A DNA stretch of 64,000 nucleotides from an uncultured Acidobacteriota bacterium (GTDB lineage Bacteria; Acidobacteriota; Thermoanaerobaculia; Multivoradales; JAHEKO01), in the NCBI GenBank assembly GCA_963713825.1, contig CAVQNG010000025.1, forward strand, positions 512,001 to 576,000. Direction: 5' to 3'. The notes under the pieces were generated by a model. It saw only the letters and a program-made list of their open reading frames with translations. It made no database searches and had not been told where the DNA came from. This document shows positions 1-61,894 of this stretch, piece by piece. The translations under genes were made by a program, and so were the position numbers. Each line of letters begins with the position of its first letter. The first letter of the stretch is position 1.

Positions 1-126
1 GAGACCAATGCCGGGGGCGAGCTCAAATTGTCGGTAACGATCCCTGCCCTGCAGCGCGGCAGCAGTGCCCTGATCGTGACTGCCAGCAGTGCGATTGGCA
101 CAGCCGAGATCAAGCAACTACTGTAG
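1..126 (+). CDS. 3' end of a host hypothetical protein (partial, runs in from the window edge)
   Basis: Frame 1 reads ETNAGGELKLSVTIPALQRGSSALIVTASSAIGTAEIKQLL* with TAG at 124-126. The mismatch between the two att copies at 54/12287 is synonymous in this frame (CAG/CAA). Confidence 0.6.
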   Translation, partial: ETNAGGELKLSVTIPALQRGSSALIVTASSAIGTAEIKQLL

Positions 127-148
127 GTAGAATAGCTTCGAATCTTCC

Positions 149-179
149 CTCTCGCACTTGACGCGAGAGCGTGTATAAT
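149..179 (+). promoter_or_regulatory. tRNA-Lys promoter region: TATAAT -10 and CTCTCGC-N7-GCGAGAG palindrome (also present in the right repeat)
   Basis: TATAAT at 174-179, 11 nt before the tRNA start. A 7-bp inverted repeat (149-155/163-169) lies over the -35 region. Confidence 0.6.
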
Positions 180-190
180 CCCCCGTTCGA

Positions 191-254
191 GGGCCGCTAG
201 CTCAACTGGCAGAGCAGCAGACTCTTAATCTGCGGGTTCGGGGTTCGAGTCCCT
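191..254 (+). pseudogene. 3'-truncated tRNA-Lys(CTT) fragment (5' 64 nt)
   Basis: Matches 12424-12487, then diverges (TTCTCC instead of GGCGGCTCACCA). It lacks the 3' acceptor strand and CCA. Confidence 0.9.
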
Positions 255-337
255 TTCTCCTTACTCAACACCTGCCGCTTTCTTCCTCCTCATGGGCCAC
301 CCATGGGCCAGTTGGTATTCAAAAAACCACCGAGAAT

Positions 338-601
338 CTAGCCTAGAGCCTTCGGCGGCAGCGTCCGTGCTTTCTTAGTTTCTTCGATCAGTTCCTGCAC
401 TTTCTCCCGCACCATCTCGCTGACACTGCGCTCGGTGTAGGCGGAGATGAGCCGCAGCGCCTTCCTTTCCTCAGGAGCGAGGTAGATGACTACCCGCATG
501 AGGCCGCCAGATGTGACGGTGGTCTCGCCACCTTTCGGGCCCTTTGGGACCTTGCCCTTGGCGGCCTTCTTGATACCTTTACCGCTGCTCGTTGGAGTCA
601 T
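338..601 (-). CDS. Ribbon-helix-helix (CopG/Arc-like) DNA-binding protein
   Basis: MRVVIYLAPEERKALRLISAYTERSVSEMVREKVQELI fits the beta-alpha-alpha RHH pattern after a Lys-rich N-tail. ATG at 601 chosen over the longer ORF start. Confidence 0.7.
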   Translation of the reverse strand: MTPTSSGKGIKKAAKGKVPKGPKGGETTVTSGGLMRVVIYLAPEERKALRLISAYTERSVSEMVREKVQELIEETKKARTLPPKALG

Positions 602-1044
602 CGCTGTTTCCCTGCCAGATGTTCCTCTTGGCGTTGGGCGTTGATGTGCCGCCCCTGCGGCTGCGTCATGCGGATGATAACATATCGGCAACATGGGTGC
701 ATAGGCATATGTGATTATGGGCCCGTAGAGACACGAACCCTGATCCCCAGCCACTCTTACCCTCAAAGATGATCAAAGTGGCCTCAGGGCGATTCTGAGG
801 CGATTGTGGGCTTGGTGAGGGCCTGCTCAGAGCGCGCACTCAGCAAGGGCGATTTAGTGGACTGAGGTCAACCTCGTTGAACCACCTGGGTTCAGTCCCG
901 ATGTCTCGCCTTCTGAATGAAGTGCATCAGTGGCTTGAAGGAGATTTCGGAGAACCATCGGCCAGACGCTCCAAGGTAGGATGGGTTTAGGAATGGCGAT
1001 GTGCCTAGTCGAAGGGCACCAGTTCGTTTTGAAGGAGGTGGGAA

Positions 1045-1362
1045 TTGCAGCTAGGCGCAGATGACACCGCCTTCGTGGTGATTACTGCTACGGTAGTTGT
1101 GGCGTTGTTGGTTTGTTGGTCTTCGCAGCGTTTCTTTAGGTACTTGAAACTTCATCATCGAGAGTTGTGGGATGAATTGGGAAGACCACATGCCTTTCTG
1201 AATCAATCGACCGATGCCACCAACTTTCTGCTACGAGGTCAGTATAGGCACCTCAAAGACCCTCGACTGAATCGTCATGGAAGCATTTGGAAGGTGACGA
1301 TGATGGGCTTTGTGGCAGCACTCTGGCTAGCACTCATATCCCTGGTGGTGAGTCAGTTGTGA
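1045..1362 (+). CDS. Small 2-TM membrane protein (UspB-like); paralog of 1417-1740
   Basis: GGAGG RBS; TM-LKLHHRELWDELGRP...FLLRGQYRHLKDPRL-TM. Confidence 0.7.
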   Translation: MQLGADDTAFVVITATVVVALLVCWSSQRFFRYLKLHHRELWDELGRPHAFLNQSTDATNFLLRGQYRHLKDPRLNRHGSIWKVTMMGFVAALWLALISLVVSQL

Positions 1363-1416
1363 CTCGAATCCAACTGGTGTGCCAGAGGTCATGAATGAAA
1401 TGAGAACCTGACAGCG

Positions 1417-1740
1417 ATGTGGAACGCACTTCTCACCACCACTTGGTCAGCGCTCGTGGTGCTTGTCGTGACTCTCCTCATTGTCTGGTATTTGCTCCTG
1501 CGACGCCTGCGGCACCACCATGAAGAACTCTGGCACTCCTTCGGAGAGCCGAGATTTTTCAGAACAACGATTCAGAAGCAGAATGATGTTCGGAAGTTCC
1601 TACGTTCGGGGGAGTACAGGAAACTCGGTGATCCTCAAATGGACCTGCTTGTACTTCTGGCAAAGATCCTAAACCCTCTTGCATCGTTGCTGTTTGTGGT
1701 CTGGGTCGTTGGAGAGTTGTTGATGTGCTGGGTCCCGTGA
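1417..1740 (+). CDS. Small 2-TM membrane protein (UspB-like); paralog of 1045-1362
   Basis: TM-LRHHHEELWHSFGEP...FLRSGEYRKLGDPQM-TM. Confidence 0.7.
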   Translation: MWNALLTTTWSALVVLVVTLLIVWYLLLRRLRHHHEELWHSFGEPRFFRTTIQKQNDVRKFLRSGEYRKLGDPQMDLLVLLAKILNPLASLLFVVWVVGELLMCWVP

Positions 1741-1763
1741 TTCAGTCCGAAAGAGAGGATTGC

Positions 1764-2387
1764 TTGAGAGTTGGAGCCCTCTTCGCGCTTGGTGATGCTC
1801 GCCTGCTTCTGGTGGCGCTGACGATGTTCTTCGGTTGTGGCCTGATGAGTGCCGCAAAAGAGGACACTCCAACCTACAGAATCAGCAGTCTTCCAGAAGA
1901 TGCGGTCCTTGAGTATGGGTTTCACGGAGGATACGGCTTAACGTCGCCTCGGTATCACCTGTACGGTGATGGGCTCCTAGTTCGGGAGGTGATCGACAAA
2001 ATGACTAACCGAGCAGTAACCACCAAAGAGCTTCAACTCTCGCTGCAGGATGTCGATGCCCTAATGCAAATGGTGGTTGAGTCTGGAGTGCCGGAATTGA
2101 CACAGCACAAGATTCGCGCTGTGGTTGGGCCGGGGTCGTTGGTCCAAGACGCATGGATGGTGGTCTTGCAGCTACGGTTCGAGAGCTATCAAAGAGAAGG
2201 GAAAGCGGAGATAGCCCCATTTGAGCCGAAGATTACAATGGAAACACCGTCACTGGTGGCCGAGGCGTTTCCTGATTTCCGAGAAGCACATGCTCTGGTA
2301 GCGCTCAACGAAGCGCTAGAAGAGTACTTCGAACAGTCTGGAACTGAGGCGGTGATGGAAGCCTCCCAGGGCCCACCCGGCAACTGA
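1764..2387 (+). CDS. Putative lipoprotein; paralog of 2402-3028
   Basis: Hydrophobic stretch ending FFGC and a YHLYGDGLLVRE motif shared with the next gene. TTG start follows GAGAGGA but is uncertain. Confidence 0.6.
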   Translation: MRVGALFALGDARLLLVALTMFFGCGLMSAAKEDTPTYRISSLPEDAVLEYGFHGGYGLTSPRYHLYGDGLLVREVIDKMTNRAVTTKELQLSLQDVDALMQMVVESGVPELTQHKIRAVVGPGSLVQDAWMVVLQLRFESYQREGKAEIAPFEPKITMETPSLVAEAFPDFREAHALVALNEALEEYFEQSGTEAVMEASQGPPGN

Positions 2388-2401
2388 CAGATGAAGGTGC
2401 T

Positions 2402-3028
2402 ATGAGGGGCTCGATGGTCATTCAGAAGTACGTCACCTGCCTAGGTCTAGTAGCCCTGCTTTTTGCGGGTTGTTCGCGAAGCGGGGCAGAAGAGTTCACG
2501 CCGAACGAGATGTCTACGGGTGTACAGGACGTTGACGCGATGAACTTGGAAAGGACATTCACATTCTCCGCAGATCCCGCAGTTGCGGTCCTTCAACTTC
2601 ACTGGAGCGGCGGCTTGCGAATGGATACCGTTGAGTACTCTCTTCTAGGTGATGGGCGTCTTCGCAAGGTGCGCAGGTCTAGGAGCGCTCTTCACGAGAG
2701 CGAAGAAGTGGAGTTGTCGTATGGCGAAGCCGAGGCTCTCCTACGGCTGGCCGTCGACGGCGGGCTGATGGAATGGGACTGGGACCGTCTTCGGGCGCAA
2801 TTTGTCGCTGCAGCGGGGCATGAACCCGCAGGTACGGACTCGAGGATCCTCCAATTTCGAATTGTCCTTGAGACCTATTCGGGGATTATGGAATCGCACG
2901 AGGGTTCAATAGCAAAGACGTTCTCGACCTCATCTCCCGCTCTCCTCAGACGAGAAGCACCTGAGATCAGAGAAATCGCAGCGCTTGATGAGTTGAGTCA
3001 GCAATTGGCGCGCTATTTCGGGCGGTAA
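2402..3028 (+). CDS. Putative lipoprotein; paralog of 1764-2387
   Basis: Lipobox LFAGC, YSLLGDGRLRKV motif, and a C-terminus (PEIREIAALDELSQQLARYF) resembling PDFREAHALVALNEALEEYF. Confidence 0.7.
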   Translation: MRGSMVIQKYVTCLGLVALLFAGCSRSGAEEFTPNEMSTGVQDVDAMNLERTFTFSADPAVAVLQLHWSGGLRMDTVEYSLLGDGRLRKVRRSRSALHESEEVELSYGEAEALLRLAVDGGLMEWDWDRLRAQFVAAAGHEPAGTDSRILQFRIVLETYSGIMESHEGSIAKTFSTSSPALLRREAPEIREIAALDELSQQLARYFGR

Positions 3029-3055
3029 ACGCGGCGGGGATAGCTCCCGACCTTG

Positions 3056-3143
3056 GCCGGTGGAGTTCCGGCGCGTGTGGCGCGCATACATTTCTCCTTA
3101 CCCCTGTTAGGGCTGGTGAAGGTGGGTGTAGGGTAGGGGGCTC
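3056..3143 (+). repeat. Dispersed 88-bp repeat, copy 1 (GCCGG-N7-CCGGC + G-rich tail)
   Basis: Aligns without gaps to 7151-7238 and 8970-9057. Confidence 0.9.
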
Positions 3144-3268
3144 AGAAGAGCGTTCCCTCAGTTGGGCTGCGCTGCAGCGTTTGGACGAATCCACTCACGA
3201 ACCTGCTTCTCACAGTCTCCACGTTTCTGCAGTACAAATGTGCCGACCAATCGCGGATCGAAAGCCAA

Positions 3269-3673
3269 TCAAGGTCCCGGTCTGTTCTGAAGGACTCGCC
3301 TTCTTCGGGGCCAAGGCAAGGGGACGTTTAGAAGACTCCAAGTCTTAACAGTCTTCCAGGTGGCACCGTCGGGTTTTTGCATTCTTGCCTTCGTCGCTGT
3401 CTTGCCTCTGTAGAACTCGACGATTCGGTAATCCCCTGACAGCAGCCCGGCGACCTCTTGGCGGCACAGTCGCCTAACGCTCTCTTCACCACATGGGAAC
3501 CATGAACCGCGAAAGGCGCCGGCTTCGAGAAACACCTCGTCAATTTGCAAGTTCAGGTTGACATCAAATAGCAGACCTCTCTGGCGGGGGATGTCCAGGT
3601 TCAGATCGAGACCACTTTCGGCAGGCTGCCTCAGCAGTCGGGCCGCTTCCTTCCGTGCAGTGTGGTCGATCAT
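3269..3673 (-). CDS. Hypothetical protein
   Basis: 134-aa ORF continuing the minus-strand gene run; no family recognised. Confidence 0.5.
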   Translation of the reverse strand: MIDHTARKEAARLLRQPAESGLDLNLDIPRQRGLLFDVNLNLQIDEVFLEAGAFRGSWFPCGEESVRRLCRQEVAGLLSGDYRIVEFYRGKTATKARMQKPDGATWKTVKTWSLLNVPLPWPRRRRVLQNRPGP

Positions 3674-3702
3674 TGGTGCGATTCTCGGCTCATCGCTTCA
3701 GT

Positions 3703-4635
3703 TCACTCGCCTGGCCGTGAGGCTCGTAACGCCCGAATCGTAGCCTCATACTGGTTGTCACCGAGAGCGACGACTGTCAAGAATCCCACCAGCTTCTGCC
3801 CATCGGGCGATTCCTGCTGGAATATCTGCATGTCGCTGACAGTCCCGCTCGACTCCGCGTCAGGAAGCCATCCCTGTTCCACCATCTGACCTCCGAAGTG
3901 CCTCGCCACTGCGACTCGAGACATGTCCACCTTGAACAGGTTGCTCCTGCTGCGGGAGTCTCCAAGACCCTGGCTGCCTGAGTTCCCCCCACCCCCGCCG
4001 CCAATCCAAACGGAGTCCTCGGGGAGATGTAGGGTGGGAAGGAAGCGTTCGAACTGGTCATAGTGGCGGTCCCCCACTAGTCGCCATCGGTCCGAACTGC
4101 CAGGCCAGCAGTCATCATCATCGAGAATGTCTAGTACTGCGAGAGTCTGATCCTGAAGCGGATGAACAACCACCGACAGCAATCTGTGGTCAGGGCCGCA
4201 AAGGGACACTTCTTCCGAGTCTGAATAGACGAACCCACCAGGCTGGGCAGGTCCCTTTTCAGCGGCTCGCCATTCCCCGCTCAACAGCGCCGCGCGGATG
4301 AGATCTCTCGCCTGGTCGGGTTTGCTGGGAACGCGTACCGCAACTCGCGCCCACGTCTCTGAGCTGGCACTTGCGACTACAGTGGCTCCGCTGGGAAGGG
4401 GGACCAGCTCTTGCAGCCCCGCCGGCATGCCTCCAGGCGTGACCGCCGGTACGCCACGAAACTTGGACGACAGCATTGCTGAAACCTCTTCTGCGGACAC
4501 GCAGTTCGACACTGTCTGCGAGAAGACCGGCATCACGAAGCAGCCCAGCATGAGACCGAGAAGGAGACCAACTCGTCCTTCGCTTCGGAAAAGAGCCACG
4601 GCACACCTCCGATCTTGGAGCGGTTGAAACCTCAT
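3703..4635 (-). CDS. Secreted hypothetical protein
   Basis: ATG at 4635 with a purine-rich RBS, signal-like segment VGLLLGLMLGCFVMPVFSQ, and a Gly-rich internal loop. Confidence 0.65.
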   Translation of the reverse strand: MRFQPLQDRRCAVALFRSEGRVGLLLGLMLGCFVMPVFSQTVSNCVSAEEVSAMLSSKFRGVPAVTPGGMPAGLQELVPLPSGATVVASASSETWARVAVRVPSKPDQARDLIRAALLSGEWRAAEKGPAQPGGFVYSDSEEVSLCGPDHRLLSVVVHPLQDQTLAVLDILDDDDCWPGSSDRWRLVGDRHYDQFERFLPTLHLPEDSVWIGGGGGGNSGSQGLGDSRSRSNLFKVDMSRVAVARHFGGQMVEQGWLPDAESSGTVSDMQIFQQESPDGQKLVGFLTVVALGDNQYEATIRALRASRPGE

Positions 4636-4720
4636 TCTACTGATCCCCCTCTGGAACATGTCCGACTTGTTCCCGTAGGTGACCTCAGAGACTGATATCA
4701 ACCCCGTTGAAGACCCGTCT

Positions 4721-4909
4721 TCAGTCCCGATCCCTTGAGTTTTCGCCCAAGGCGGCGAACCTGCCAACGAAGCCGAATATACCGACAAACGTCACCAGTC
4801 CCATCCAAAACCCCTTGTAGATAGCTACGTAGATTCCGGCGGCAAGACCCGCGATGAACGCGAACACGATCAACGCGAGAGGCAGAGTTCCCTCATCCCA
4901 ACGAGACAT
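4721..4909 (-). CDS. Small 2-TM membrane protein
   Basis: 62 aa with two hydrophobic helices and an AAGG upstream. Confidence 0.5.
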   Translation of the reverse strand: MSRWDEGTLPLALIVFAFIAGLAAGIYVAIYKGFWMGLVTFVGIFGFVGRFAALGENSRDRD

Positions 4910-5032
4910 GACGTACCTTAAAGGACTGTAGCACTAGAACCACTGCGACCCGACTTCGACGGGAGTCCCTCTACCTTCCCGGGAGGGTGGTGCATCGTTT
5001 ATGTAGTGCCTGCTAGGGTGCCTCCAGCAGAG

Positions 5033-5605
5033 ATGAAGCTAACAGGTAGATCGACTCTGTTGGTAGCTGTGGCCCAGGTCCTCCTGGCGGCCAGCTTTTC
5101 CTCCCCTCAGGGGAGATACCTCTCGGACGACGAGAGTGGCGTCAGGCAGATCAGAGAGACAGGAGATCAACGCATTTGCAGAGTTGTCAGCACGGTTGAG
5201 CACCCACACCATTCGGAGGAGGAACGCAGAGAGTTCGAGTCGTTCACCAAGCTGTTCCATCTCAGTCTTCTAGAGGCGGAAGGAATACAGGTCGGGAATG
5301 GAGACCCCTGTGAAGGCGGTACCCTCGAATTGGCGATGAGGACCGCCAAAGACGAAGAGCGCGAGTACTTCTTCACAACCGTGGTTGTTCAGTACTTCGC
5401 CCACGAACCGACCAGAGAGAACCTCGGTGAAGCTGAGCCGGCGTGGGTGAAAGCCGGAGCCATAGACCCGATTCGTTACAAATCGAAGGATGCAGACAGA
5501 GATGACTGGGTCTACTTCCTGACCGGCAAGACGCTCGAGCTACACCTGAAGCTCTTCCACGAATTCGTGTCAGATTGGAAGGAGGCTCACGGGACCCCCT
5601 CGTGA
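5033..5605 (+). CDS. Secreted hypothetical protein
   Basis: Signal peptide MKLTGRSTLLVAVAQVLLAASFS. Confidence 0.65.
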   Translation: MKLTGRSTLLVAVAQVLLAASFSSPQGRYLSDDESGVRQIRETGDQRICRVVSTVEHPHHSEEERREFESFTKLFHLSLLEAEGIQVGNGDPCEGGTLELAMRTAKDEEREYFFTTVVVQYFAHEPTRENLGEAEPAWVKAGAIDPIRYKSKDADRDDWVYFLTGKTLELHLKLFHEFVSDWKEAHGTPS

Positions 5606-5613
5606 GAGCTGGT

Positions 5614-5934
5614 ATGGACTCGCTGGGGTTGGCGGGTGATCCTGCCGCAAAGACCGGTATCGCAGCCTTGTCCGAGGAATACTTTGGATTGCCGCCAGAG
5701 GCCCTGGTGGTCGTAATCGTGGCCTCTGCAATTGGGTTCGGAGCGTCACTTCTGTTTACCCGCTCCTACCTCCGACGAGTAGGGAAACCTTGGACCTCGG
5801 CGTTGCATCCTCGGTTTATGCTTGATGCGGATTTCAACAAGAGAGAGCTGCTGATCTTGGGCGCCACGTTTGCCCTAGTATTTCTCTGGCTGTTGCTCTC
5901 CTCTTTCGTGAGGGGTTGGTTGAAGTACAGATAG
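5614..5934 (+). CDS. Small 2-TM membrane protein
   Basis: Two hydrophobic helices flanking a short basic loop. Confidence 0.55.
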   Translation: MDSLGLAGDPAAKTGIAALSEEYFGLPPEALVVVIVASAIGFGASLLFTRSYLRRVGKPWTSALHPRFMLDADFNKRELLILGATFALVFLWLLLSSFVRGWLKYR

Positions 5935-6140
5935 CTCCTGCACCATCCTTGTCTTTTTCGTTCTGGGGTGTGTTCCATGAGCGCTCCCTCCAGTCCAAAT
6001 ACCTTGGTAGTTAGGCCCGCCACTCAGACCGGGCATGACGGTTGAGTGGGGGTGCGGCATCGTGGTCCACTGGAGGGGTTCCCCAGGGAGGTCAGGGCGT
6101 CGGTTACACTTCTCTTGGTCAAATTGTGCGGAGGGGGCTA

Positions 6141-6674
6141 ATGCTCAAGCTGATCGGTTATCCCGCGATCGTAGTCTCGAGCCTGAGTCTGGTGGCTAGT
6201 CTGGCGATTATCCTAGCTGCGCCCACCGGATGGATAGACTCCGAAGATGTGGTCCTCCTAGCCATGATCTTGAGCATCGTTGTTCCTGGAGGAGCCGCGA
6301 TTCTGATCGTCAATACGGAGTTCGAGAATCTGTCTCAGCGCCAAGTGATGAAGCTGAGCTGGGAGTTGTGTCCTCGCTGGATGCGGCTTCTGGGGAGGAT
6401 CCTGATTGCCATGGGTTTTCTAGCCTTCCTTGGAGAGGTTGCGGTAGGAGCCATTGGAACCTCCTCTGAAACCGAAGGTTCCACAGCTCTCTCCACGGGC
6501 GGTTTTGGACTCGTGATTCATGCGTGGGCAATCGTCTTGATCTATGGAGCAATGCAGTTGCAGGAGAATCTAGCCCGGTCTCGGTGCAAGTTCGGTCACG
6601 AGGTCCCGTTGGGTGCGAAGTTCTGTCCCGAGTGTGGTGAAAGAGCTAACCCAGAAGGCGCTCGACTCGAGTGA
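6141..6674 (+). CDS. 4-TM membrane protein with C-terminal zinc ribbon
   Basis: GGAGG RBS, four hydrophobic segments, and CKFGH...AKFCPECG. Confidence 0.75.
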   Translation: MLKLIGYPAIVVSSLSLVASLAIILAAPTGWIDSEDVVLLAMILSIVVPGGAAILIVNTEFENLSQRQVMKLSWELCPRWMRLLGRILIAMGFLAFLGEVAVGAIGTSSETEGSTALSTGGFGLVIHAWAIVLIYGAMQLQENLARSRCKFGHEVPLGAKFCPECGERANPEGARLE

Positions 6675-6749
6675 GTACTCAGGTCGAGTCAAGTCAATCG
6701 CACTACCCGAAGACGTGGCGACTGCTGAGCAGCGTCCCGTTAGGCTGTT

Positions 6750-7214
6750 GTGGAAATGGTCTCAGCTGAAGGTAGTCTCCAGCTTGACGCCACCACCCGG
6801 ATGGCGATTGGCTGCATTGTCGCGGCACTGGCATTCGAGTTGTTTGCGGTGGGCGCGATGGTCTGGCAAGAGTCCCAAGCCGTCGGCCTCCCAGTCTTGT
6901 TAGGCTGCGTTGGGGTACTCGGGATGGGAGTTCTCTTGGCCTCCGTTTGCAGCTTCTTGATCTGGTTTCATCGAGCTTACAGGCGCTTGGAAGTCCTCGA
7001 GGTGGGGAATCGTAGGTACTCCGCCACTTGGGCTGTTCTGGGGTGGTTCATTCCGTTTCTAAACTTGGTTCGTCCGTACCGCGTGGCCATCGAAATCTGG
7101 GAAAGGACGGACTCCTACTGCTGCCTGCAAGCGGGCGGGCCGGCAGCTCCGCCGGAAAGTACCCGGCGTGTGTGGAGCGCATTCATCCGCTCTGAACCCG
7201 GTCGGGGCTGGTGA
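6750..7214 (+). pseudogene. DUF4328-like membrane protein, apparently 3'-truncated at repeat copy 2
   Basis: FLIWFHRAYRRL...WAVLGWFIPFLNLVRPYRVAIEIW resembles DUF4328. The expected C-terminal TM helices are absent and the stop codon lies inside the repeat. Confidence 0.6.
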
Positions 7215-7238
7215 AGGTGGGTGTGGGGTATGGGGCTC
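7151..7238 (+). repeat. Dispersed 88-bp repeat, copy 2
   Basis: GCCGG-AAAGTAC-CCGGC GTGTGTGG...GGGCTGGTGAAGGTGGGTGTGGGGTATGGGGCTC. Confidence 0.9.
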
Positions 7239-7584
7239 GGACCACCAGGCGCTCTGCTGTGCAACTAGGCAGCTGCTCTAGCGGGAATCCGAGAAGCGGC
7301 GAAAGAGAACGTGAGCCACCTCGGCGGCGGAGGGATTCGCATTCAGGGCCGCGACAAACGCTGGTGAGCCTCTGATACGGTGCCTGCCGGCAACGATCAT
7401 TTCCCGCCACGAGACAAGAAGCACTAGCCTGGCAGATCTTCTCGGGCAAGAGGGATGGTTGTTGGCTCTGTCGGGAGTCGTGGTTGTGGTCTAGCGAACC
7501 AGAAGTGGATCATGACGAGCACCCACCCAGTTGGGTAGTGCGTCGTAGTTGCTGATCTGGTAGTTATCAGTAGGAGCGAACTCG

Positions 7585-8970
7585 GTGAGCGTATCTTCTT
7601 TCTGCCAGCGGGTAACTAGTGGAGCAGTGAGAAATTATGCCCTCATCCTGCTGTCGTTTCTAATAGGGGCGCTGCTTCATGCTCAGGAGTCCATTCGTCT
7701 AGGCGACGAGTTCCAGGTCAACTCCTACACCCCGGGAAACCAATGGCGTTCCGATGTAGCAGTGGACGCCCAGAGCAACTTCGTGGTCGTCTGGCAAAGC
7801 CGAACGTCGCCCGGCACAGACGCGAGCTGCTACAGCATCCAGGCGCAGCGCTACGACTGCGATGGGACACCTGTCGGAGGACAGTTTCAGGTCAACTCCT
7901 ATACGACGAGCTGCCAGGAGATCCCCAGGGTGGCAACCGATCCACAGGGCAACTTCGTGGTTGTCTGGGAGAGCTATGGGTCGTACGGCTCGGACGCGAG
8001 CTACCACAGCATTCAGGCGCAAAAGTATGATGCCAACGGAACTCCTCTTGGGGGCCAGTTCCAGGTCAACTCCTACACCACCGGAAACCAATGGTGGTCC
8101 GATGTTGCAATGGACGCCCAGGGCAACTTCGTGGTGGTCTGGACAAGCTGGGGTTCCTTCGGCACAGACTCAAGCCCCGAGAGCATTCAAGCGCAGTACT
8201 ACGACTCCAGTGGCACGCCCGTGAGAGGAGAGTTTCAGGTCAATAGCTATACAACGTACAGCCAAATCCGACCCGCAGTGGCTGTCGACGCCCAGGGCAA
8301 CTTCGTGGTGGTCTGGGGCAGCTGGGGATCGTACGGCACAGACACAAACTTCTGGAACGTGCAGGGTCAGCGATTCACCGGCAAGGGCTTGGCTTTGGGT
8401 AGAGAGTTCCAGGTCAACAGCCTCAGTGAAGACATCCAAAACTCGCCCAGAGTGGCGGCGGGTGCGAACGGCAGCTTCGTTGTCGTCTGGAGAACAGACG
8501 GCGAGTCCCCCGGCACCGATTCCAGTGTCAGCAGTGTCCAGGGGCGGCGCTTCGACGCCAGTGGAAGAGCATTGGGTAGCCAGTTTCAGATTAACTCCTA
8601 CACCATTAACCGCCAGGAAGAAGCCGCAGTAGCCTTGGACACAGAGGGCAACTATGTGGTCGCCTGGGCGAGCTTGGGTTCGGATGGCACGGACACCAGT
8701 TCCTGGAGTGTCCAAGGTCAACGCTTCACCAGCAATGGCTCACCTCTGGGAGACGAGTTCCAGGTCAACAGCTACACCTCGATTCATCAGCGCCGCCCAG
8801 CTCTGGCTGTTGGACCAAACGGTACATTCGTGGTCGTATGGGAGAGCTATGGTTCGTACGGCACGGATACGAGCCAGGCCAGTATCCAGGCTCAGCTCTA
8901 CGCCACATCGATCTTCGCGGACGGCTTTGAGTCAGGGGATACGTCTGCATGGGACGACACCGTGCCCTAG
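7585..8970 (+). CDS. Secreted 7-repeat (probable beta-propeller) protein with C-terminal IFADGFE motif
   Basis: Signal peptide, seven ~58-aa repeats (FQVNSYT..Q...VA.D..GNFVVVW.S.GS.GTD), and the ending IFADGFESGDTSAW. Confidence 0.85.
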   Translation: MSVSSFCQRVTSGAVRNYALILLSFLIGALLHAQESIRLGDEFQVNSYTPGNQWRSDVAVDAQSNFVVVWQSRTSPGTDASCYSIQAQRYDCDGTPVGGQFQVNSYTTSCQEIPRVATDPQGNFVVVWESYGSYGSDASYHSIQAQKYDANGTPLGGQFQVNSYTTGNQWWSDVAMDAQGNFVVVWTSWGSFGTDSSPESIQAQYYDSSGTPVRGEFQVNSYTTYSQIRPAVAVDAQGNFVVVWGSWGSYGTDTNFWNVQGQRFTGKGLALGREFQVNSLSEDIQNSPRVAAGANGSFVVVWRTDGESPGTDSSVSSVQGRRFDASGRALGSQFQINSYTINRQEEAAVALDTEGNYVVAWASLGSDGTDTSSWSVQGQRFTSNGSPLGDEFQVNSYTSIHQRRPALAVGPNGTFVVVWESYGSYGTDTSQASIQAQLYATSIFADGFESGDTSAWDDTVP

Positions 8971-9057
8971 CCGGCGAATACCCGGCGCGTGTGGAGCCCA
9001 CTCATTCACAACTACCCCTGTGGGGGCTGGCCAAGGTGGGTGTGGGGTGGAGGGCAC
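8970..9057 (+). repeat. Dispersed 88-bp repeat, copy 3
   Basis: GCCGG-CGAATAC-CCGGC begins on the last base of the preceding TAG stop. Confidence 0.9.
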
Positions 9058-9690
9058 GCGTGAATCGCCAGAGGTTGGCCAGCGAGACCCTGCCTTGCTA
9101 GCTATACATTGCGAATATGTCGCAGATCTCTGCAAGGTGCTGTCTCACAGTAACTTACGTGCGTTACCGCTGTCTCAGATACTGCAAAGTACCCTGGTTT
9201 AGCCTACTCCCAGGAGTCCTCCAGAGCGGGCAGGAGGCAGAGAGAGGGAGAGGAAATCCCAATAGGCAAGGCTGGTGGCAGGCGGGGCGAGTGTTGACTG
9301 TTTGTAGTCCCAGCACTCCGAACGGCATCACGAAGCAGCGCACTCCGAGACACGCCTTGGGGGCGTGCTCGGTATTCTGCTGGCTAGCGGGATGCTCCCG
9401 AAGAGCGTTCTCAGTCAGCCGATAACTAGCCCAATTTGAATTGGGCTGAATCGGCTGCTAGCCAGATCCTCTAGTGGAAGGATTCGTAAGAGGTCCTAGA
9501 AAGTATCCTAGGCATATGAGCCCTGACTGCGCCCCAGCTCTGGGGGGTTGAATCCCCCAAGTCTGGGGCGCAGGAGGTGAGTGAGAGGGTAGAGCTGAAG
9601 GGTATAGATTGCTACTCTTCTAACCTCCTTCTAAGCCCTCTATACCTCCCCAGTTCCCCCCTCTTAGCACGAAGTGCCCCACCCCTCCAT

Positions 9691-11067
9691 TTACTGATTT
9701 TCTGTTCTTATCCCTAGGCTCTCCAAGTCTCTTCGAACGGTTCTCGGGTGGCTGCCGATCGCCGCTGCCAGCTGTCTCAGCGAGAAGGGCAGGGGGTCAC
9801 CGTGAGTCTCGGCGAGATGTTCAAGTGCCTCGTGTCGCCGCCGCTGCTCCAGCTTCCTTTTGCCCTTCTCAGGCCTATACTCAAAGTCGGGCCGAATGCT
9901 GAGCAGTTCAAGATTGTCGGCTTCCTCAACAGTGACCCCCAGGAGCCTGGCGACGGTCTTGTTCCTAGGCGGGTTCAGGTTTGAGAGTCCGCTTTTCATC
10001 TGAGTTCGCGCTTCATGCGGTGCCATCTCAGGATGGCAATGCTCTGCGATTTTCAGTACCTCTCTCTCGATCGCTTCGTCGGGGTACCCGATACCGCGCA
10101 GTATCGTGGCTGCTAGGTAACACGCATGCCGACGAGTACCCTGAGAGAACCCGCCTCTCGCGTAGCGGATGATCTGAAACTCTACCCACAGGCGTTCATA
10201 CCTGGCCTTTTGCGCCTTGCGCTTGGGTGCGAGCTGGGCGATCTCCTGGTCCGTTTTTTTCGGCCTTGGCCGTGGCGGCTTCTTTCTGACTTCTGGCTCT
10301 TTCTCAAGACCCAGGTACTCCCGTAATTCCTCCAATGTGTAGCTGGCGGGGAATCCGCTGTCCTCGAGGTAGACGAAGTACTCAACAGGCAACCCGACCT
10401 TGGAGTTGATACTCCCGGCAACTCGCTGATGAGTCGTCACCTTGACAGGATCCTCGTCGGGTTCAAGCTCAGGGCGAGTGGCATTCAACCTTGCGACTAG
10501 AGCCAGATTGATTCGTTCCTGAAGTCTCCTATTGCGATACCAAGCCTTTGGCGGCGATGTACCCAGCTGTCCCTGAATCAGCCTCGCTAGTTCGAGCGCA
10601 GGTGGATCACTCTCATCGACAAGAAACCAGTAGGGGCGGACTCCACGCCCAGTGCGCTCGATGGCCGAGATCGGAGGCACCAGTCTTTCGGATTCCAGTC
10701 CCTTTAAATACCCCATGGCTGTCGTGAAATCCAGCTGTTCGCAATCGCAATCTACCCAAACCGCTGTCAGACGGTGATAGCTTTTCTCCGTGGGCCATGG
10801 CCTCGGACCGTAGACAGTGTTGATGGATACGTAGGCGTCAGTCTTCAGCTGATTGATCACGGGCTGCCATGTGATCACGTACTCCAGGCGCTCAAGTGGC
10901 ACCGAGCCTCTGAACCGACCTGCGTACAGAAACCGTGGTTGGTCGTCAGTCTTTCTCCAGAAGTGAACATAGCGACCACCAAAGTCCAGATTCCAGCGGT
11001 TGCTGTGGAAGTACTTGAGGTGCCCAACACTTAGCCCTTCAGCGCCAAAATGCAGCTCCTTCTTCAA
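9691..11067 (-). CDS. Replication initiator, AEP/primase-like with PriCT-like and C-terminal HTH domains
   Basis: DAYVSIN, WVDCD, TGRGVRPYW, RVAGSINSK, GFSQGTRRHACY (PriCT-like) and SLRQLAAAIGSHPRTVRRDL (HTH). TTG start follows GGAGG. Confidence 0.75.
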   Translation of the reverse strand: MKKELHFGAEGLSVGHLKYFHSNRWNLDFGGRYVHFWRKTDDQPRFLYAGRFRGSVPLERLEYVITWQPVINQLKTDAYVSINTVYGPRPWPTEKSYHRLTAVWVDCDCEQLDFTTAMGYLKGLESERLVPPISAIERTGRGVRPYWFLVDESDPPALELARLIQGQLGTSPPKAWYRNRRLQERINLALVARLNATRPELEPDEDPVKVTTHQRVAGSINSKVGLPVEYFVYLEDSGFPASYTLEELREYLGLEKEPEVRKKPPRPRPKKTDQEIAQLAPKRKAQKARYERLWVEFQIIRYARGGFSQGTRRHACYLAATILRGIGYPDEAIEREVLKIAEHCHPEMAPHEARTQMKSGLSNLNPPRNKTVARLLGVTVEEADNLELLSIRPDFEYRPEKGKRKLEQRRRHEALEHLAETHGDPLPFSLRQLAAAIGSHPRTVRRDLESLGIRTENQ

Positions 11068-11101
11068 TAGTTGCCTCCCCCATGTGGGCCAGAAACAGTC
11101 T

Positions 11102-12208
11102 CTAGACAGCCCTGTAATCGCCCGTATTTGGCCTCTGTCGGACGTTCCCTCTAAACCCGAACATCCGCTCATTCATGCGGCTCACTACCTTGGTCGTGTG
11201 CTGATCGGACAGGTGACTGTACCTCTTAACTACTGCCAGGGTCTTGTGTCCGAGAACCTCGGCGATCTCGGCGAGGGTGGCACCGCTCATGGCGAGATAT
11301 GAGGCAGCCGTGTGGCGGAGATCGTGAAAGCGGAAGTCGTCGATTCGAGCCTTTCTGAGAGCGCGCTCCCATGCCTTTCTCGGGAAAGTCGCTTTTCCGC
11401 CTGGAGCAGGGAAAACGAGGTCGGTGTCCATCCGTCTGACCTTTCTCATCTCGCGAAGCAGCTCCGCCGCGTAGCCGGTCACGGGAACCGCCCTCCGTTC
11501 ACCGTTCTTGGTGTGATGGATGATAGCCAGGCCACGGCTGCTGTCTATGTCATTCCAACAGAGCCCGAGAAGCTCACTCTGACGGGCACCCGTGGAGAGA
11601 GCCAAGACCACTAGAGGATAGAGTCTCCGCTCACTGCTGCTTCGACAAGATGCGAGTAGTTGGTCTCTCTCGTAGTCGGACAGAAACCGTACTCGCCCGC
11701 GAGGCTCGCGCTCTCTGGACACGGATCTGACAGGGTTGGTCCCTGTCCAGCCCACTTCTCTGATTGCGAAGGTGAAGGCGTGAGAGAGCGCTGCAAGGTA
11801 TCGATTCACCGTGCCAGCTGCCCTTCGTGTTCCCTTCGGAGTCAGACCTCTGGAGAGTACCTTCTTTCGGCTCGCTACCAGCTCGGGTGTTACATGCGCC
11901 AAGCAGTAACCTCCGAGCTGGGCCTTCCACCAGAGCAGCTGAGCCCTTTGAACCCGAATGCTTGCCGGTTTGCCCGGCATGGCTTCGACAAGGTAAAGGT
12001 CTACCAGCTCGCCAAGCGTACGGCGCTGAGCTTGGCTAGTCCTGAGGTACCGCCCTTCCCGAATCCCGGTCTCTGTCTGCTCTGCCCACTGCTTGGCGAG
12101 ACTCTTCTTTTGAAAGGTCGCTGTCTGAGGGGGAAACCCCTTAATACGAACTCGAGCCCGGTAGCTGATGGTCCCTGTTTTCGATATCCTGCGTTGAATG
12201 GTGGCCAC
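11102..12208 (-). CDS. int: Tyrosine recombinase / site-specific integrase
   Basis: Full catalytic set: TGARQSE (R), TKNG (K), HDLRH, LGH, KRY. N-terminal arm-binding-like domain. GTG start with GAGGAGG RBS. Confidence 0.95.
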   Translation of the reverse strand: MATIQRRISKTGTISYRARVRIKGFPPQTATFQKKSLAKQWAEQTETGIREGRYLRTSQAQRRTLGELVDLYLVEAMPGKPASIRVQRAQLLWWKAQLGGYCLAHVTPELVASRKKVLSRGLTPKGTRRAAGTVNRYLAALSHAFTFAIREVGWTGTNPVRSVSREREPRGRVRFLSDYERDQLLASCRSSSERRLYPLVVLALSTGARQSELLGLCWNDIDSSRGLAIIHHTKNGERRAVPVTGYAAELLREMRKVRRMDTDLVFPAPGGKATFPRKAWERALRKARIDDFRFHDLRHTAASYLAMSGATLAEIAEVLGHKTLAVVKRYSHLSDQHTTKVVSRMNERMFGFRGNVRQRPNTGDYRAV

Positions 12209-12259
12209 GGAGACCTCCTCTTGGGTCTGTGGTCCACGGGTTGTCCAACGAGGAGGAAG

Positions 12260-12487
12260 ATTGTCGGTAACGATCCCTGCCCTGCAACGCGGCAGCAGTG
12301 CCCTGATCGTGACTGCCAGCAGTGCGATTGGCACAGCCGAGATCAAGCAACTACTGTAGGTAGAATAGCTTCGGATCTTCCCTCTCGCACTTGACGCGAG
12401 AGCGTGTATAATCCCCCGTTCGAGGGCCGCTAGCTCAACTGGCAGAGCAGCAGACTCTTAATCTGCGGGTTCGGGGTTCGAGTCCCT
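12260..12487 (+). repeat. Right att repeat (228 bp)
   Basis: Copy of 27-254 that continues into the intact tRNA-Lys 3' end. Confidence 0.95.
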
Positions 12488-12499
12488 GGCGGCTCACCA
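12424..12499 (+). tRNA. tRNA-Lys(CTT)
   Basis: 76-nt cloverleaf, anticodon loop CT-CTT-AA, GGTTCGAG T-loop, CCA end. Confidence 0.97.
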
Positions 12500-12553
12500 G
12501 CCTTTTCAATCTCTCCCCGGTGCATCAGCATCGCCTAGCCGGAAGAGTTCGGT

Positions 12554-12639
12554 GCGAAAGTGGCGGAATTGGTAGACGCGCTAGACTTAGGATCTAGTCC
12601 CGTAAAGGGGTGGGGGTTCGAGTCCCCCCTTTCGCACCA
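12554..12639 (+). tRNA. tRNA-Leu(TAG)
   Basis: Long variable arm, anticodon loop CT-TAG-GA, CCA end. Confidence 0.95.
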
Positions 12640-12694
12640 TATCGTCATTCCACGAACCCACTCATAGTATGGCCAGAAAGGACCTTCTGCTCCC

Positions 12695-14002
12695 GTGAGC
12701 GTAGTGCTATCCATCGAAGACGTCGGGCCCTGTCGTAAGCAGCTCAAGGTCGAGGTACCCGCACCGGCGGTAGAGGCCGAGTCGAAGCGTGTTGTCGAGG
12801 AGTATCGAAAGCACGCCAAGTTGCCAGGCTTCCGCCAAGGCAAGGTGCCGACAGAGTTGGTGAAACAGAAGTTCCACAAAGAAATCGAGCAGGATGTTGT
12901 CGAGCGACTCCTGCCCCGGTACTGGAAACAGGCCGAGGCCGAGAGCGAGCTGGATCCCCTGTTGCCTCCGAGCGTCGACGAGGTCGACTACCAACCCGGT
13001 GCCCCCCTGACCTTCGTAGCATCGGTCGAGACTCGACCCGAGATCGAGCTGGGGAGCCTCGAGGACTTCGAGCTACCGGATTTCGAGACCGAGCCCACCG
13101 AGGAGGAGATCGGGCAAGCGCTCGAGGACATGCGACGAGCCGTCGCCGAGTGGGTGGCAGCAGACAGGCCGGCCGCGACCGGTGATCTGGTTGCAGGCCA
13201 GCTGGCCCAGCTCGACCCGGAGAGCGGCGAGCCTGGAGCCGAGAAGCCCTTCAGCTTCGAGGTGGGCGATCCTCAGGTATGGGAAGAGCTCACTTTGGAA
13301 GTCACAGGCAAGCAGGCCGGCCAACAGGCCGATTTCTTCCGCCAGGAGGGCGAAGGGGACGATGCGGTCTCACGCCGCTTCCGGGTCAAGGTCGAGGCGG
13401 TTCGCGAGCGGGATCTCCCCGCATTGGATGATTCGTTGGCGGCCCAGTTCGGCGACTATGCAGACGTGGACGCGCTGCGACAGGGAGTGCGAGGGGAGCT
13501 CAGGCGCGGCAAAGCGTCGGAGCGCAGTCAGCAGCGTGAACGGGCGATGCTGGACCAGCTGCTCGAGCGTCACCCCTTCGAACTGCCACAGGGAGTCGTG
13601 GACAACGAGATCGAGGGTATGCTCAAGGAGTACGCCCAGAGTCTGGCCGGGCAAGGGGTCGATTTGGAGAACGCCGATCTCGATTGGCCTACCATGGCCG
13701 AACAGATCCGGCCGCAGGCCGAGCGCCGGGTCCACGCTCGACTGCTGCTCGATGCCATCACTTCCCATCAGAAGATCGAAGTCGGTGAAGAGGACTTCGA
13801 GGCCGCGTTGGCCGCCATCGGCAGGGCTCAGGGGCGAAGCGCAGTCAGTGTTCGGCAGGCTCTGGACAAGTCTGGCAACCTGATCGGCTTCAGGGCTCAA
13901 TTGGCCAGGGAGAAGGCCATCAAGAGTCTCCTCGGCGAAGAATCGGTCGAGCCGACACCCGAGAGTGGGGAGCCCGAGACCGAATCCGAGAACGAAGGTT
14001 GA
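12695..14002 (+). CDS. tig: Trigger factor
   Basis: PGFRQGKVP ribosome-binding motif; located upstream of clpP. Confidence 0.95.
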
Positions 14003-54141: not shown

Positions 54142-54216
54142 GCCGGCATAGCTCAGGGGTAGAGCAGCTGTCTTGTAAACAGCAGGTCCTCGGTTCGAAT
54201 CCGGGTGCCGGCTCCA
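54142..54216 (+). tRNA. tRNA-Thr(TGT)
   Basis: Cloverleaf, anticodon loop CT-TGT-AA, CCA end. Confidence 0.95.
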
Positions 54217-61367: not shown

Positions 61368-61454
61368 GGAGGTGTAGCCGAGTGGTCAAAGGCAGCAGAC
61401 TGTAAATCTGCCGGGCAAAGCCCTACGGTGGTTCGAATCCATCCACCTCCACCA
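61368..61454 (+). tRNA. tRNA-Tyr(GTA)
   Basis: Long variable arm, CT-GTA-AA, CCA end. An extended -10 (TGCTACTAT) lies upstream. Confidence 0.96.
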
Positions 61455-61466
61455 TTTTCTCTTCAA

Positions 61467-61541
61467 GCGGGAGTAACTCAGTGGTAGAGTCTCGGCCTTC
61501 CAAGCCGTTGGTCGCGGGTTCGATTCCCGTCTCCCGCTCCA
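61467..61541 (+). tRNA. tRNA-Gly(TCC)
   Basis: Cloverleaf, CT-TCC-AA, CCA end. Confidence 0.96.
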
Positions 61542-61728
61542 TTCTGAATCCCGAGCCTCGTTCCCGAGGAGACTAGAGGCCCCCCGGGCTCCCTGCAGGA
61601 GCTGTCGGGTCTATTGCCGGCTCCTGGGGTTGTGGAGATGGTGGGAATCTGAGAGACTCCCGCTGCGCATTGCGACGCCCCCCGGACAGGCCCTCAAGGG
61701 TCGGCGGGATGGTCAAGGAATTCGGGGC

Positions 61729-61819: not shown

Positions 61820-61894
<75 letters not shown>

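Follow-up and report, generated by a model that had tools for sequence, protein, structure and literature searches.

The window, i.e. the whole stretch of 64,000 nucleotides from an uncultured Acidobacteriota bacterium that was analysed, carries an element of 12.2 kb that is inserted at tRNA-Lys(CTT) and flanked by direct repeats of 228 nt. All three full copies of an 88-base repeat are found within this element. The features are as follows, in coordinates of the window:

27-254, plus strand: left 228-nt direct repeat, comprising a host gene 3' end and the 5' three quarters of tRNA-Lys, without the 3' acceptor strand
2402-3028, plus strand: 208-aa lipoprotein-like gene, with which plus-strand block 1 ends
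3056-3146, plus strand: repeat copy 1, 27 nt past the stop of the 208-aa gene, between convergent genes
3056-3072, 7151-7167 and 8970-8986, no strand: 17-bp inverted repeat GCCGG-N7-CCGGC, perfect in all three copies
3110-3140, 7204-7235 and 9022-9054, plus strand: G-rich tract with four G-runs (a G-quadruplex-type motif), one per copy
6750-7214, plus strand: truncated DUF4328 gene, homology ending at about 7139 and profile match stopping at position 93 of 166
7151-7241, plus strand: repeat copy 2, from which the truncated DUF4328 ORF takes its final 21 codons and its TGA
7585-8970, plus strand: 461-aa secreted repeat protein gene with 174-nt tandem units and a host-type C-terminal tail
8970-9060, plus strand: repeat copy 3, overlapping by its first base the TAG that ends the 461-aa gene (ORF 7585-8970)
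9527-9573, no strand: 47-nt palindrome (z = -6.0) in the 633-nt non-coding stretch from copy 3 to the Rep-like gene
9691-11172, minus strand: Rep-like protein, 458 aa in its called form P0001, with a C-terminal HTH-like part
11102-12346, minus strand: tyrosine integrase ORF, the real start of which is likely near 12208
12260-12487, plus strand: right 228-nt direct repeat, 99% identical to the left one and running into the intact tRNA-Lys(CTT) at 12424-12499

The 228-nt identity ends in the T arm of the tRNA (CGGGG-TTCGAGT-CCCTG), which is probably the crossover region of the integrase. The integrase is encoded at the far end of the element, on the strand opposite to the plus-strand gene blocks, and its best-scoring models are generic Xer-type models, all under their cut-offs. 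With the integron-integrase models it reaches 44.2 bits for TIGR02249 (cut-off 265) and 25.2 bits for NF011946 (cut-off 435), in agreement with an earlier note on this DNA, which saw no IntI-specific features. The plus-strand genes form three blocks (1045-3028, 5006-7214, and 7585-8970), each of which is closed by one repeat copy in sense orientation. The blocks comprise four, six (on both strands, in block B), and one genes, and have their own divergent intergenic regions. The intergenic regions that harbour copies 1 and 3 are convergent.

The repeat units proper occupy 3056-3143, 7151-7238, and 8970-9057 on the plus strand of the window and can be aligned without gaps. Re-alignment and a recount agree with the earlier note on the three same-orientation copies and on 57 of the 88 columns being invariant; pairwise identity is 74-76%. 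The motif scan likewise recovered the perfect GCCGG-N7-CCGGC and the spacers reported there, TGGAGTT in copy 1, AAAGTAC in copy 2, and CGAATAC in copy 3. Local alignment including 400-nt flanks gave sharp edges, at GCCGG on the left and at about 3141-3146, 7241, and 9055 on the right, with flanks unrelated to one another. Within the inverted repeat all ten arm positions are invariant versus none of the seven loop positions (Fisher p = 5e-5), and the variable positions of the whole repeat are clustered (27 runs, permutation p = 0.00075). Such block-wise variation at about 75% overall identity suggests constraint or selection. The conserved arm is one-sided, extending for about 70 nt 3' of the 5-7-5 core, and includes a strictly conserved GYGTGTGG block. 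The four G-runs are also invariant in all copies. The element has only these three G-quadruplex-type motifs, all on the sense strand, while the genome background is 0.10 per kb for the two strands taken together.

In the window, the 25-nt 5' motif with up to two mismatches has three matches versus 0.02 expected, with none of 100 shuffles reaching three, and the 3' motif with up to three mismatches has three matches versus 0.00 expected. In the 5.42 Mb genome there are 44 occurrences of the bare 5-7-5 palindrome. Full copies are restricted to the three of the element, and one diverged half copy is present on contig C35, 31 nt past the stop of a co-oriented gene in a second integrase-bearing island, whose integrase is 30% identical to that of the tRNA-Lys element. 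Thus, the REP or MITE scattered over the genome, which had been named as an alternative in the earlier note, was not what the genome scan returned, all copies being in integrase-bearing islands. A known Rfam family, the other alternative considered there, did not match the repeats at gathering score, nor even at E<=1 in 2900-9700. A comparable repeat was not found in relatives, genome contigs of 185,579 species, viral contigs, plasmids, and phages, and matches in 60 relatives stayed at or below the level of the reversed-pattern control. Judged by these sequence searches, the repeat is previously undescribed and private to one 12.2 kb element within the data searched.

Sharp unit edges, unrelated flanks, a hairpin at one end of the unit, and the location at gene 3' ends would be expected if the copies were left over from a small mobile repeat of the non-autonomous kind (MITE, REP, or PATE-like) or from a duplicated 3' flank, without present function. 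The interruption of a gene by one copy and the diverged half copy elsewhere in the genome are also in line with such an origin. However, the number of full copies is low for a mobile repeat, terminal inverted repeats and target duplications are not visible in the directly read flanks of the three copies, and no transposase family matched the element ORFs scanned. DUF4328 is not resumed after copy 2, which is therefore not a simple insertion, and the block-wise conservation argues against neutral decay. Relics of this kind are an improbable explanation.

As had been claimed before, the copies are found at the 3' ends of plus-strand genes, 27 nt after a stop codon, inside the ORF 6750-7214, and on a TAG. 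We tentatively regard the repeat, an 88-91-nt cis element of this mobile element that is maintained by selection, as a transcription-unit boundary that is recognised by a factor and that doubles as a rearrangement joint, a reading which is quite possible but falls short of being probable. A short GC hairpin or dyad at or just past the last stop codon would be followed by the GYGTGTGG block and the tract of four G-runs, and these parts together would stop or insulate plus-strand transcription. The halt would keep plus-strand transcription out of the next block or out of genes that converge with it (3269-4788, and Rep/Int at 9691-12208). Because the primary sequence is conserved, and not merely a stem, the site would be read not just by RNA polymerase but by a factor, protein or RNA, that comes from the element or the host. 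Secondly, the shared sequence may have acted as a joint in the rearrangement of blocks, copy 2 adjoining the truncated gene.

This boundary function is favoured by the sense-orientation placement at block ends in three of three cases together with the half copy behind a co-oriented gene on C35, by the clustered variation, the invariant arms, and the invariant G-runs on the sense strand, and by the precedent of the mycobacteriophage stoperators (PMC9283540). The lack of an ordinary terminator at the plus-strand block ends is a further argument: in a consensus scan of 1-12700, none of 12 terminator-like sites was at a plus-strand block end and none at 3056, 7151, or 8970. Several other genes of the genome are, by eye, followed by a hairpin with a T-run. 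On the other hand, a T-run follows the 5-bp hairpin in none of the copies, and no copy folds better than shuffles: z ranges from -1.39 to +1.27 for RNA and from -1.63 to +0.94 for ssDNA, where only the 5-bp stem recurs. The consensus folds show two-sided changes at two pairs on the plus strand and at one pair on the minus strand, and their covariation term lends no support to structure. A length of 88 nt is large for a protein site. In addition, sub-motifs of the repeat are absent from the divergent intergenic, putative promoter regions 767-1044 and 4789-5005 and from near the element ends, unlike what an operator or stoperator network would have. A boundary also does not by itself predict the loss of DUF4328 homology 12 nt before copy 2. 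In the one RNA library, element contigs are found only over 3732-4563 and 9902-10133, in addition to the tRNA region 12422-12639.

All copies being on one strand, each with a hairpin and a G-rich tract on that strand, could also mean that they are strand-specific replication or maintenance sites, used for ssDNA priming or bound by a Rep-like or ribbon-helix-helix protein in a replicating excised element. The element does encode a Rep-like protein, the Atlas look-alikes of which carry the name "Replication protein" (score 0.96), and distant Rep-bearing loci have hairpin repeats of their own. A replication role of this protein is a lead. Its family is homologous to residues 274-672 of the 703-aa P0007, whose N-terminus is a Pfam Prim-Pol domain; as the aligned part is outside this domain, primase activity is unsupported. 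Its structure is poorly modelled in the N-terminal half (mean pLDDT 54.5). Moreover, the copies, found at gene ends and 1.8-4.1 kb from one another, are not clustered near rep, and they have no ssDNA fold beyond the 5-bp stem. What obviously resembles an origin is the palindrome at 9527-9573, a candidate for an origin or for a bidirectional terminator. A replication function of the repeat is very unlikely.

A live rival of the transcriptional boundary, which remains the best reading, is that the copies are recombination sites for the exchange of modules, with an accessory arm on one side of the 17-bp 5-7-5 core, and bound exchangeable gene blocks. They would be used by the tyrosine integrase of the element or by a host recombinase and would be nearer to dif modules than to integron cassettes. 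We regard this as rather unlikely, and slightly less likely still that the repeat, with its core and its arm of about 70 nt carrying a G-quadruplex-type tract, is the site of an undescribed module-exchange system of small integrase/Rep elements. Inverted arms around a spacer of 6-8 bp, the core expected for a tyrosine recombinase, are present in all three copies, with invariant arms and a free spacer. The confinement to integrase-bearing islands fits as well, and so do the genes next to the sites. DUF4328 homology stops 12 nt before copy 2, and the missing 75-80 or so residues are not encoded elsewhere, either in the element or in the genome. The 461-aa gene, the sole gene between the direct copies 2 and 3, is of host type, with paralogs on four host contigs and a C-terminal tail matching a tail motif at 57 ORF ends in the genome; a gene between two direct copies would be the product of a circle inserting into a resident site.

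In addition, cargo looks variable among relatives. Rep and the 208-aa protein have relatives with 86-90% identity on contigs of 11-13 kb, and the only relative of the 298-aa protein, encoded between copies 1 and 2, has 55% identity and is on a 61.6 kb contig. This suggests that cargo differs among related elements. Fixed cargo had been listed as counter-evidence in the earlier note; the cargo looks variable instead, as judged from protein searches.

Concerning the spacers, all three differ, whereas tyrosine-recombinase partners are expected to share theirs. The earlier note had seen an obstacle in this. The difference stands, but the worry is weaker than stated because, in Acinetobacter, the pdif sites of one plasmid also differ in their spacers and recombine with partners of identical spacer (PMC13141974). 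The differing spacers might keep the array stable in cis, with exchange taking place between elements that have a spacer in common. If so, sites with the same spacer would swap blocks between elements or capture them from the host, and such events would have left their traces in the host-type 461-aa gene between copies 2 and 3 and in the DUF4328 gene cut short at copy 2.

Against exchange it has to be considered that the stretch conserved beside the spacer is only 5 bp on the left versus 13 on the right, that all copies are direct repeats, and that the blocks comprise one to six genes, in block B on both strands and with divergent intergenic regions of their own. The probable crossover of the integrase has arms different from those of the repeat core. 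Copy 2 looks mosaic, its 5' part resembling copy 3 and its 3' part copy 1, but this is not significant (permutation p = 0.079). No joint linking two repeat copies was among the 15 of 40 joints listed, a weak negative since it comes from contigs only. The cassette capture proposed in the earlier note is not borne out by these data, given this missing product in the contigs, the 5-bp left arm, the size of the blocks, the integrase score, and the lack of an attC-like hairpin. The description given there holds in that the repeat is confined and matches no Rfam family, cargo does not look fixed, and DUF4328 is cut short at copy 2; a cassette system is a possible interpretation.

Among known systems, integron cassettes are mostly promoterless single ORFs read from one promoter beside the integrase, and their attC sites form a long imperfect hairpin on one strand, with paired R and L boxes and extrahelical bases. 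The element resembles them in the order of gene and site, in the single orientation, in the site starting at the stop codon or close beside it, and in the sites being imperfectly alike. In contrast to attC, however, the repeat has no long imperfect hairpin on either strand (ssDNA and RNA folds) and no R and L boxes. The absence of RYYYAAC is as stated in the earlier note; that of GTTRRRY, likewise stated there, agrees with our reading of the 3' end of copy 1 (GTTAGGG), the only copy inspected by eye. Its blocks hold up to six genes, and the integrase is distal and on the opposite strand. Membership in the integrons was thus rejected, based on the 44 bits of the integrase versus the cut-off of 265, the missing long hairpin, and the multi-gene, two-strand blocks. 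REP/BIME and MITE repeats are present in tens to hundreds of copies genome-wide. They share with our repeat the hairpin and a location behind genes or in the gap of a convergent pair; the repeat differs in having three full copies, all in one 12.2 kb element, and no visible terminal inverted repeats or target-site duplications. As in an intrinsic terminator, a stop codon is directly followed by a GC stem, but the T-run is missing, the stem is only 5 bp long, and 70 further nucleotides are conserved.

The dif modules of Acinetobacter plasmids have pdif sites in alternating inverse orientation, in which a spacer of 6 bp separates an XerC arm from a different XerD arm (11-6-11); their rearrangements have been demonstrated by PCR and sequencing, and module content varies among related backbones (PMC13141974). 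Like the element, these small replicons of about 10 kb are divided by short two-arm sites whose spacers differ within one replicon. In contrast to pdif, the core is palindromic (5-7-5) with G+C-only arms and a one-sided conserved arm, all three units are direct on the plus strand, and a rearrangement product was not seen in the contigs. The stoperators of Cluster A mycobacteriophages lie in short intergenic spaces, are asymmetric and oriented in line with transcription, and have been proposed to halt elongation; they are 13-mers with more than 20 copies, are also found at promoters, and have a known repressor (PMC9283540). Although our repeat consists of three 88-nt units, none of them at putative promoter regions, and its binder is a putative factor, it is like the stoperators a dispersed asymmetric intergenic site of an integrated element that is sense-oriented in three of three cases.

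The repeat unit of 88 bases is present three times, always on the plus strand, in a 12.2 kb element that is integrated at tRNA-Lys(CTT) and lies within positions 1-12500 of the window.

Features of the element (window positions)
1045-3028, plus strand, plus-strand block 1: four genes, closed by copy 1
3056-3146, plus strand, copy 1 of the unit
5006-7214, plus strand, plus-strand block 2: four or five genes, closed by copy 2
7151-7241, plus strand, copy 2 of the unit
7585-8970, plus strand, plus-strand block 3: one gene, closed by copy 3
8970-9060, plus strand, copy 3 of the unit
9691-11172, minus strand, Rep-like gene
about 11102-12346, minus strand, integrase gene
12424-12499, intact tRNA-Lys(CTT) at the integrase end of the element

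The copies align without gaps, and a recount confirmed what the earlier note had counted by hand, namely 57 invariant positions of 88 and a perfect GCCGG-N7-CCGGC at the start of every copy (spacers TGGAGTT, AAAGTAC, and CGAATAC). Pairwise identities are 74-76%. Local alignment with 400-nt flanks gave sharp edges, with GCCGG on the left and positions around 3141-3146, 7241, and 9055 on the right, and the flanks are unrelated. Exactly three matches in the window were found both for a 25-nt 5' motif (up to two mismatches) and for a 25-nt 3' motif (up to three mismatches), while 0.02 and 0.00 matches, respectively, are expected from shuffles. The 5-7-5 palindrome by itself is common and occurs 44 times in the genome. 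The positions that vary lie in clusters (27 runs, p = 0.00075), and the arms of the inverted repeat are invariant at 10 of 10 positions whereas the loop is invariant at none of seven (p = 5e-5). Such block-wise variation would fit selection on particular blocks and not the decay of a recent duplication. The 3' block contains four invariant G-runs, and the only G-quadruplex-type motifs of the element are three, one per copy and each on the sense strand; across the genome, such motifs have a background of 0.10 per kb, counting both strands.

In the 5.42 Mb genome assembly from which the window comes, the 3' motif with up to three mismatches matches at these three places only. The scan with an HMM or covariance model that the earlier note had proposed for this genome and its relatives was run and located full copies in this element only, plus a half copy in an integrase island on another contig, C35. 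With the nhmmer profile, the three copies have E ~1e-25 and the C35 match, over model positions 2-52, has E 0.0023; nothing further lies below E 7. Among 60 other genomes of relatives, the pattern with up to three mismatches gave three single matches (2-3 mismatches each, in 3/60 genomes), and a reversed control pattern gave 11 matches in seven of the same genomes. A covariance model built from the unit and run over 150 relatives matches in 113 of 151 genomes (the window's own included) at E<=1, which is noise only: the best foreign match reaches 30.8 bits compared to 108-110 bits for the true copies, and the conserved blocks are absent from the four foreign alignments listed. The exact 20-base pattern has no match in IMG/VR viral contigs or in genome contigs covering one genome for each of 185,579 species, and blastn of copy 2 gave no match in plasmid and phage collections. 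Rfam reports nothing over the repeats at gathering score, nor at E<=1 over 2900-9700. The earlier note had weighed a REP/MITE scattered over the genome and a known Rfam family against its own idea; because the genome contains only three full copies, and neither the relatives nor Rfam provide a comparable match, the unit is neither a REP/MITE, for which the copy number is wrong, nor a described RNA family. We conclude that the unit is real, constrained, previously undescribed, and private to a rare integrative element.

The element is bracketed by a 228-nt direct repeat (27-254 and 12260-12487, 99% identical), which takes in the final 99 nt of the host gene upstream, the promoter side of tRNA-Lys(CTT), and three quarters of this tRNA from its 5' end. 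In the left copy, which reaches 35 bits as tRNA, the 3' acceptor strand is missing. The intact tRNA is found at the integrase end and the cut-short one at the far end. Usually, such an element carries the 3' part of the tRNA, and the polarity here is the reverse. The window contains seven intact tRNA genes (regions 12424-12639, 54142-54213, and 61368-63284), and tRNA-Lys and tRNA-Leu are located immediately upstream of the trigger-factor gene at 12695-14002. The tyrosine integrase (PF00589, E 5.8e-30) is of a generic type; on the integron-integrase model, it reaches 44 bits where the cut-off is 265. In addition to the integrase and the Rep-like protein, the element encodes a weak ribbon-helix-helix ORF (338-766) and about 11 further ORFs, one of which matches DUF4328 while none of the others is above the curated cut-off of any family; several look by eye like membrane or secreted proteins. 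G+C contents of the three blocks and the core (53.9, 57.4, 58.5, and 57.1%, compared to 61.5% in the host part of the window) are uninformative on separate origins of the blocks. Between copy 3 and the Rep-like gene there is a non-coding stretch of 633 nt (9058-9690) with a near-perfect palindrome of 47 nt (9527-9573), which folds as ssDNA with -24.1 kcal/mol (z = -6.0) and is a candidate for an origin or for a bidirectional terminator.

A replication role of the Rep-like protein is a lead rather than a finding. Its look-alikes in the atlas are clusters named 'Replication protein' (score 0.96), and a protein of 703 aa aligns through its residues 274-672 to the family (probability 99.6%), the Pfam Prim-Pol domain of that protein (residues 14-166) being outside the aligned part. 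The structure model is poor (mean pLDDT 54.5, N-terminal half disordered), and a profile search of the PDB gave only weak matches to sigma-54 C-terminal regions (E 0.05). The element is rare, and the Rep-like protein has eight database relatives with a single close one.

Closest database relatives of three proteins of the element
Rep-like protein, after copy 3: P0002, 86% identity, on a 12.9 kb contig
208-aa protein, in front of copy 1: P0012 at 90%, on a 12.1 kb contig, and P0015 at 87%, on an 11.0 kb contig
298-aa protein, from the stretch between copies 1 and 2: P0010 alone, at 55%, on a 61.6 kb contig

These relatives suggest that the cargo between the copies may vary among close relatives of the element. 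Within the order, 15/300 genomes match the Rep-like protein (the window's own included), the best foreign match being 30% identical. A search of metagenome contigs with the Rep alignment identified six short loci that are distant (25-34% identity), and the same search gave none in genome contigs, viral contigs, plasmids, or phages. When a looser nhmmer profile was run over all loci collected, these six yielded only a chance-level match in one of them (L009, E 5.9). Five loci with distant Rep homologs carry repeats of their own without this unit. In another genome of the same order, G299, the loci whose distant Rep homolog is 31-33% identical contain their own clusters of 33-nt hairpin repeats, GAAAGGGYGCA..TGCRCCCTTTTC, which are unrelated in sequence to the unit (L053, 8883-9010; L054, 7510-7715, 9442-9513, and 11169-11356).

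Every plus-strand block is closed by one copy in sense orientation (3/3), and copies 1 and 3 sit between convergent genes. Because this sense placement at the end of a block is the one regularity that is true of every copy, we rank first, tentatively and as a possibility short of probable, that the unit is a boundary of plus-strand transcription blocks. A precedent is provided by the stoperators, oriented intergenic sites proposed to stop elongation (PMC9283540). It counts against such a boundary that a promoter-proximal copy of the unit was not found in the search for one, and that no copy folds better than its shuffles, whether as RNA or ssDNA and on either strand. The consensus folds (alifold) contain almost no covariation, and a structured RNA or attC-like fold is supported neither by these nor by single-sequence folds of either strand. 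Also in favour of a boundary, a consensus scan for terminators gave none at the ends of the plus-strand blocks. An intrinsic terminator is rejected for the missing T-run. Block 1 consists of two tandem paralog pairs, the membrane proteins of 105 and 107 aa (38% identical over 42 residues, E 1e-6) and the proteins of 220 and 208 aa (27% identical, E 1.5e-9), and the 208-aa family is found in 38/300 genomes of the order including the window's own.

The earlier note had proposed that the unit serves a non-integron cassette array. The first part of this proposal agrees with the integrase score and the lack of an attC-like fold, and membership in the integrons fails on every feature testable here. 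The regions between the copies appear unlike integron cassettes. The one from copy 1 to copy 2 additionally has two genes on the minus strand (3269-4788) and one intergenic region that is divergent. Capture of cassettes is a possibility only. A form of the note's idea that would be nearer to dif modules than to integrons, with the unit as a site of module exchange, is the second reading that remains and seems rather unlikely to us, with several observations in its favour. The DUF4328 gene at copy 2 is truncated. Its ORF matches the Pfam profile at positions 16-93 of 166 only, ending at 7139, while four homologs of the same order match from positions 4/5 to 164/166 (113-128 bits). According to the alignment, the protein is without about 75-80 C-terminal residues, and a tblastn search for the missing part gave no convincing match, the best E being 0.046 in the rest of the element and 0.6 in the genome. 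Therefore, the unit starts 12 nt past the point at which the gene is cut, and copy 2 supplies the final 21 codons and the stop of the ORF. Next, the 461-aa gene between copies 2 and 3 looks like host-type cargo bracketed by two direct copies of the unit. It has paralogs on four host contigs (C1, C3, C13, and C15; 64-72% nucleotide identity) and appears complete, copy 3 beginning at its stop codon, and its C-terminal tail fits a GFE.G[DN]..W-type motif that is present at 57 ORF ends in the genome. This tail, followed by at most 12 residues and the stop (window 8920-8970 in the present case), resembles a C-terminal tag for secreted proteins that is specific to the lineage. The 461-aa protein (7585-8970) is built from about seven units of 58 residues, ..FQVNSYT..GNFVVVW.S.GS.GTD.S..S.Q.Q.., with a period of 174 nt.

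Exchange of modules would also agree with the variable cargo and with the confinement of the unit to integrase islands. Contig C35 starts with an integrase gene that is 30% identical to that of the element, and in this second island (202-3742) the integrase is accompanied by three ORFs on the plus strand, after which comes the half copy (3692-3742). The half copy corresponds to the 5' half of the unit and is located 31 nt after the stop of a gene. This gene is otherwise unrelated but shares its last 19 residues with the 461-aa gene (18/19 identical). The earlier note had worried about the differing spacers; this concern has become weaker, given that differing spacers in cis, within one replicon, are normal in dif modules (PMC13141974). 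Against an exchange stand the left arm of just 5 bp, the direct orientation of all copies, the multi-gene content of the blocks, and the lack of a recombination product from copy to copy among the contig joints listed. Copy 2 has the look of a mosaic, its 5' part resembling copy 3 and its 3' part copy 1, but a test for this did not reach significance (p = 0.079).

Word matches to the element were listed for 20 of 24 public sequencing runs, from 11 studies, and three DNA runs (salt marsh, marine sediment, and marine) contain near-identical copies of it when compared as contigs at 85% likeness. A piece of run X3 (6789-7268, 0 differences) spans copy 2 and a piece of run X4 (8349-9339, three differences) spans copy 3, both in the order of the window. 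Joints linking two copies are absent from the 15 listed of 40, and the comparison comprised 923 further pieces beyond those listed; because contigs drop rare variants, it neither supports nor excludes excision. An unexplained hint only is that X3 contig ends adjoin edges of the repeat: two contigs abut exactly at 3051, which is 5 bases short of copy 1, and a third ends at 9062, just past copy 3. The repetition of the unit within the element does not explain these breaks because the copies share no 31-mer. The metatranscriptome X20 has contigs at 3732-4563, 9902-10133, and the tRNA region 12422-12639, none over the repeats; those at 3940-4563 and 9902-10133 agree fully with the corresponding parts of the 298-aa gene and the Rep-like gene, respectively, and could derive from DNA carry-over.

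Several other roles were considered and rejected. Two frames are open through all three copies. A coding role is rejected given 8/12/11 variable sites by codon position and a variable middle that alters every residue. The consensus scan found no sigma-70 promoter at the copies, the minus strand being by eye without usable -35/-10 spacing, and a sigma-54 promoter was dropped for its wrong GG/GC spacing. A diversity-generating retroelement was dropped because no reverse transcriptase family was found among the ORFs scanned and the differences in the alignment are by eye not confined to adenines. The loop is not conserved as expected for a rolling-circle nick site, and the 8-mers of the unit are at most 4.6-fold over first-order expectation, so that a Chi-like site was dropped as well.

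The closing of transcription blocks, which we rank first, and an exchange of modules are not exclusive, as a boundary sequence that is shared can double as a recombination joint. The near-identical copies in three sediment and marine DNA runs and the word matches in further runs would make comparative and read-level tests feasible once the contigs of the relatives are read. Known systems built on dispersed oriented repeats in small mobile elements are the integron attC sites, the pdif sites, and the stoperators. The unit shares features of its layout with each of them, but by its tested features it belongs to none. If it were a boundary signal, it would point to a factor for sequence-specific termination or insulation in a lineage that has received little study, and if it were a site of exchange, it would add a third kind of system for cassettes or modules to the integrons and dif modules.
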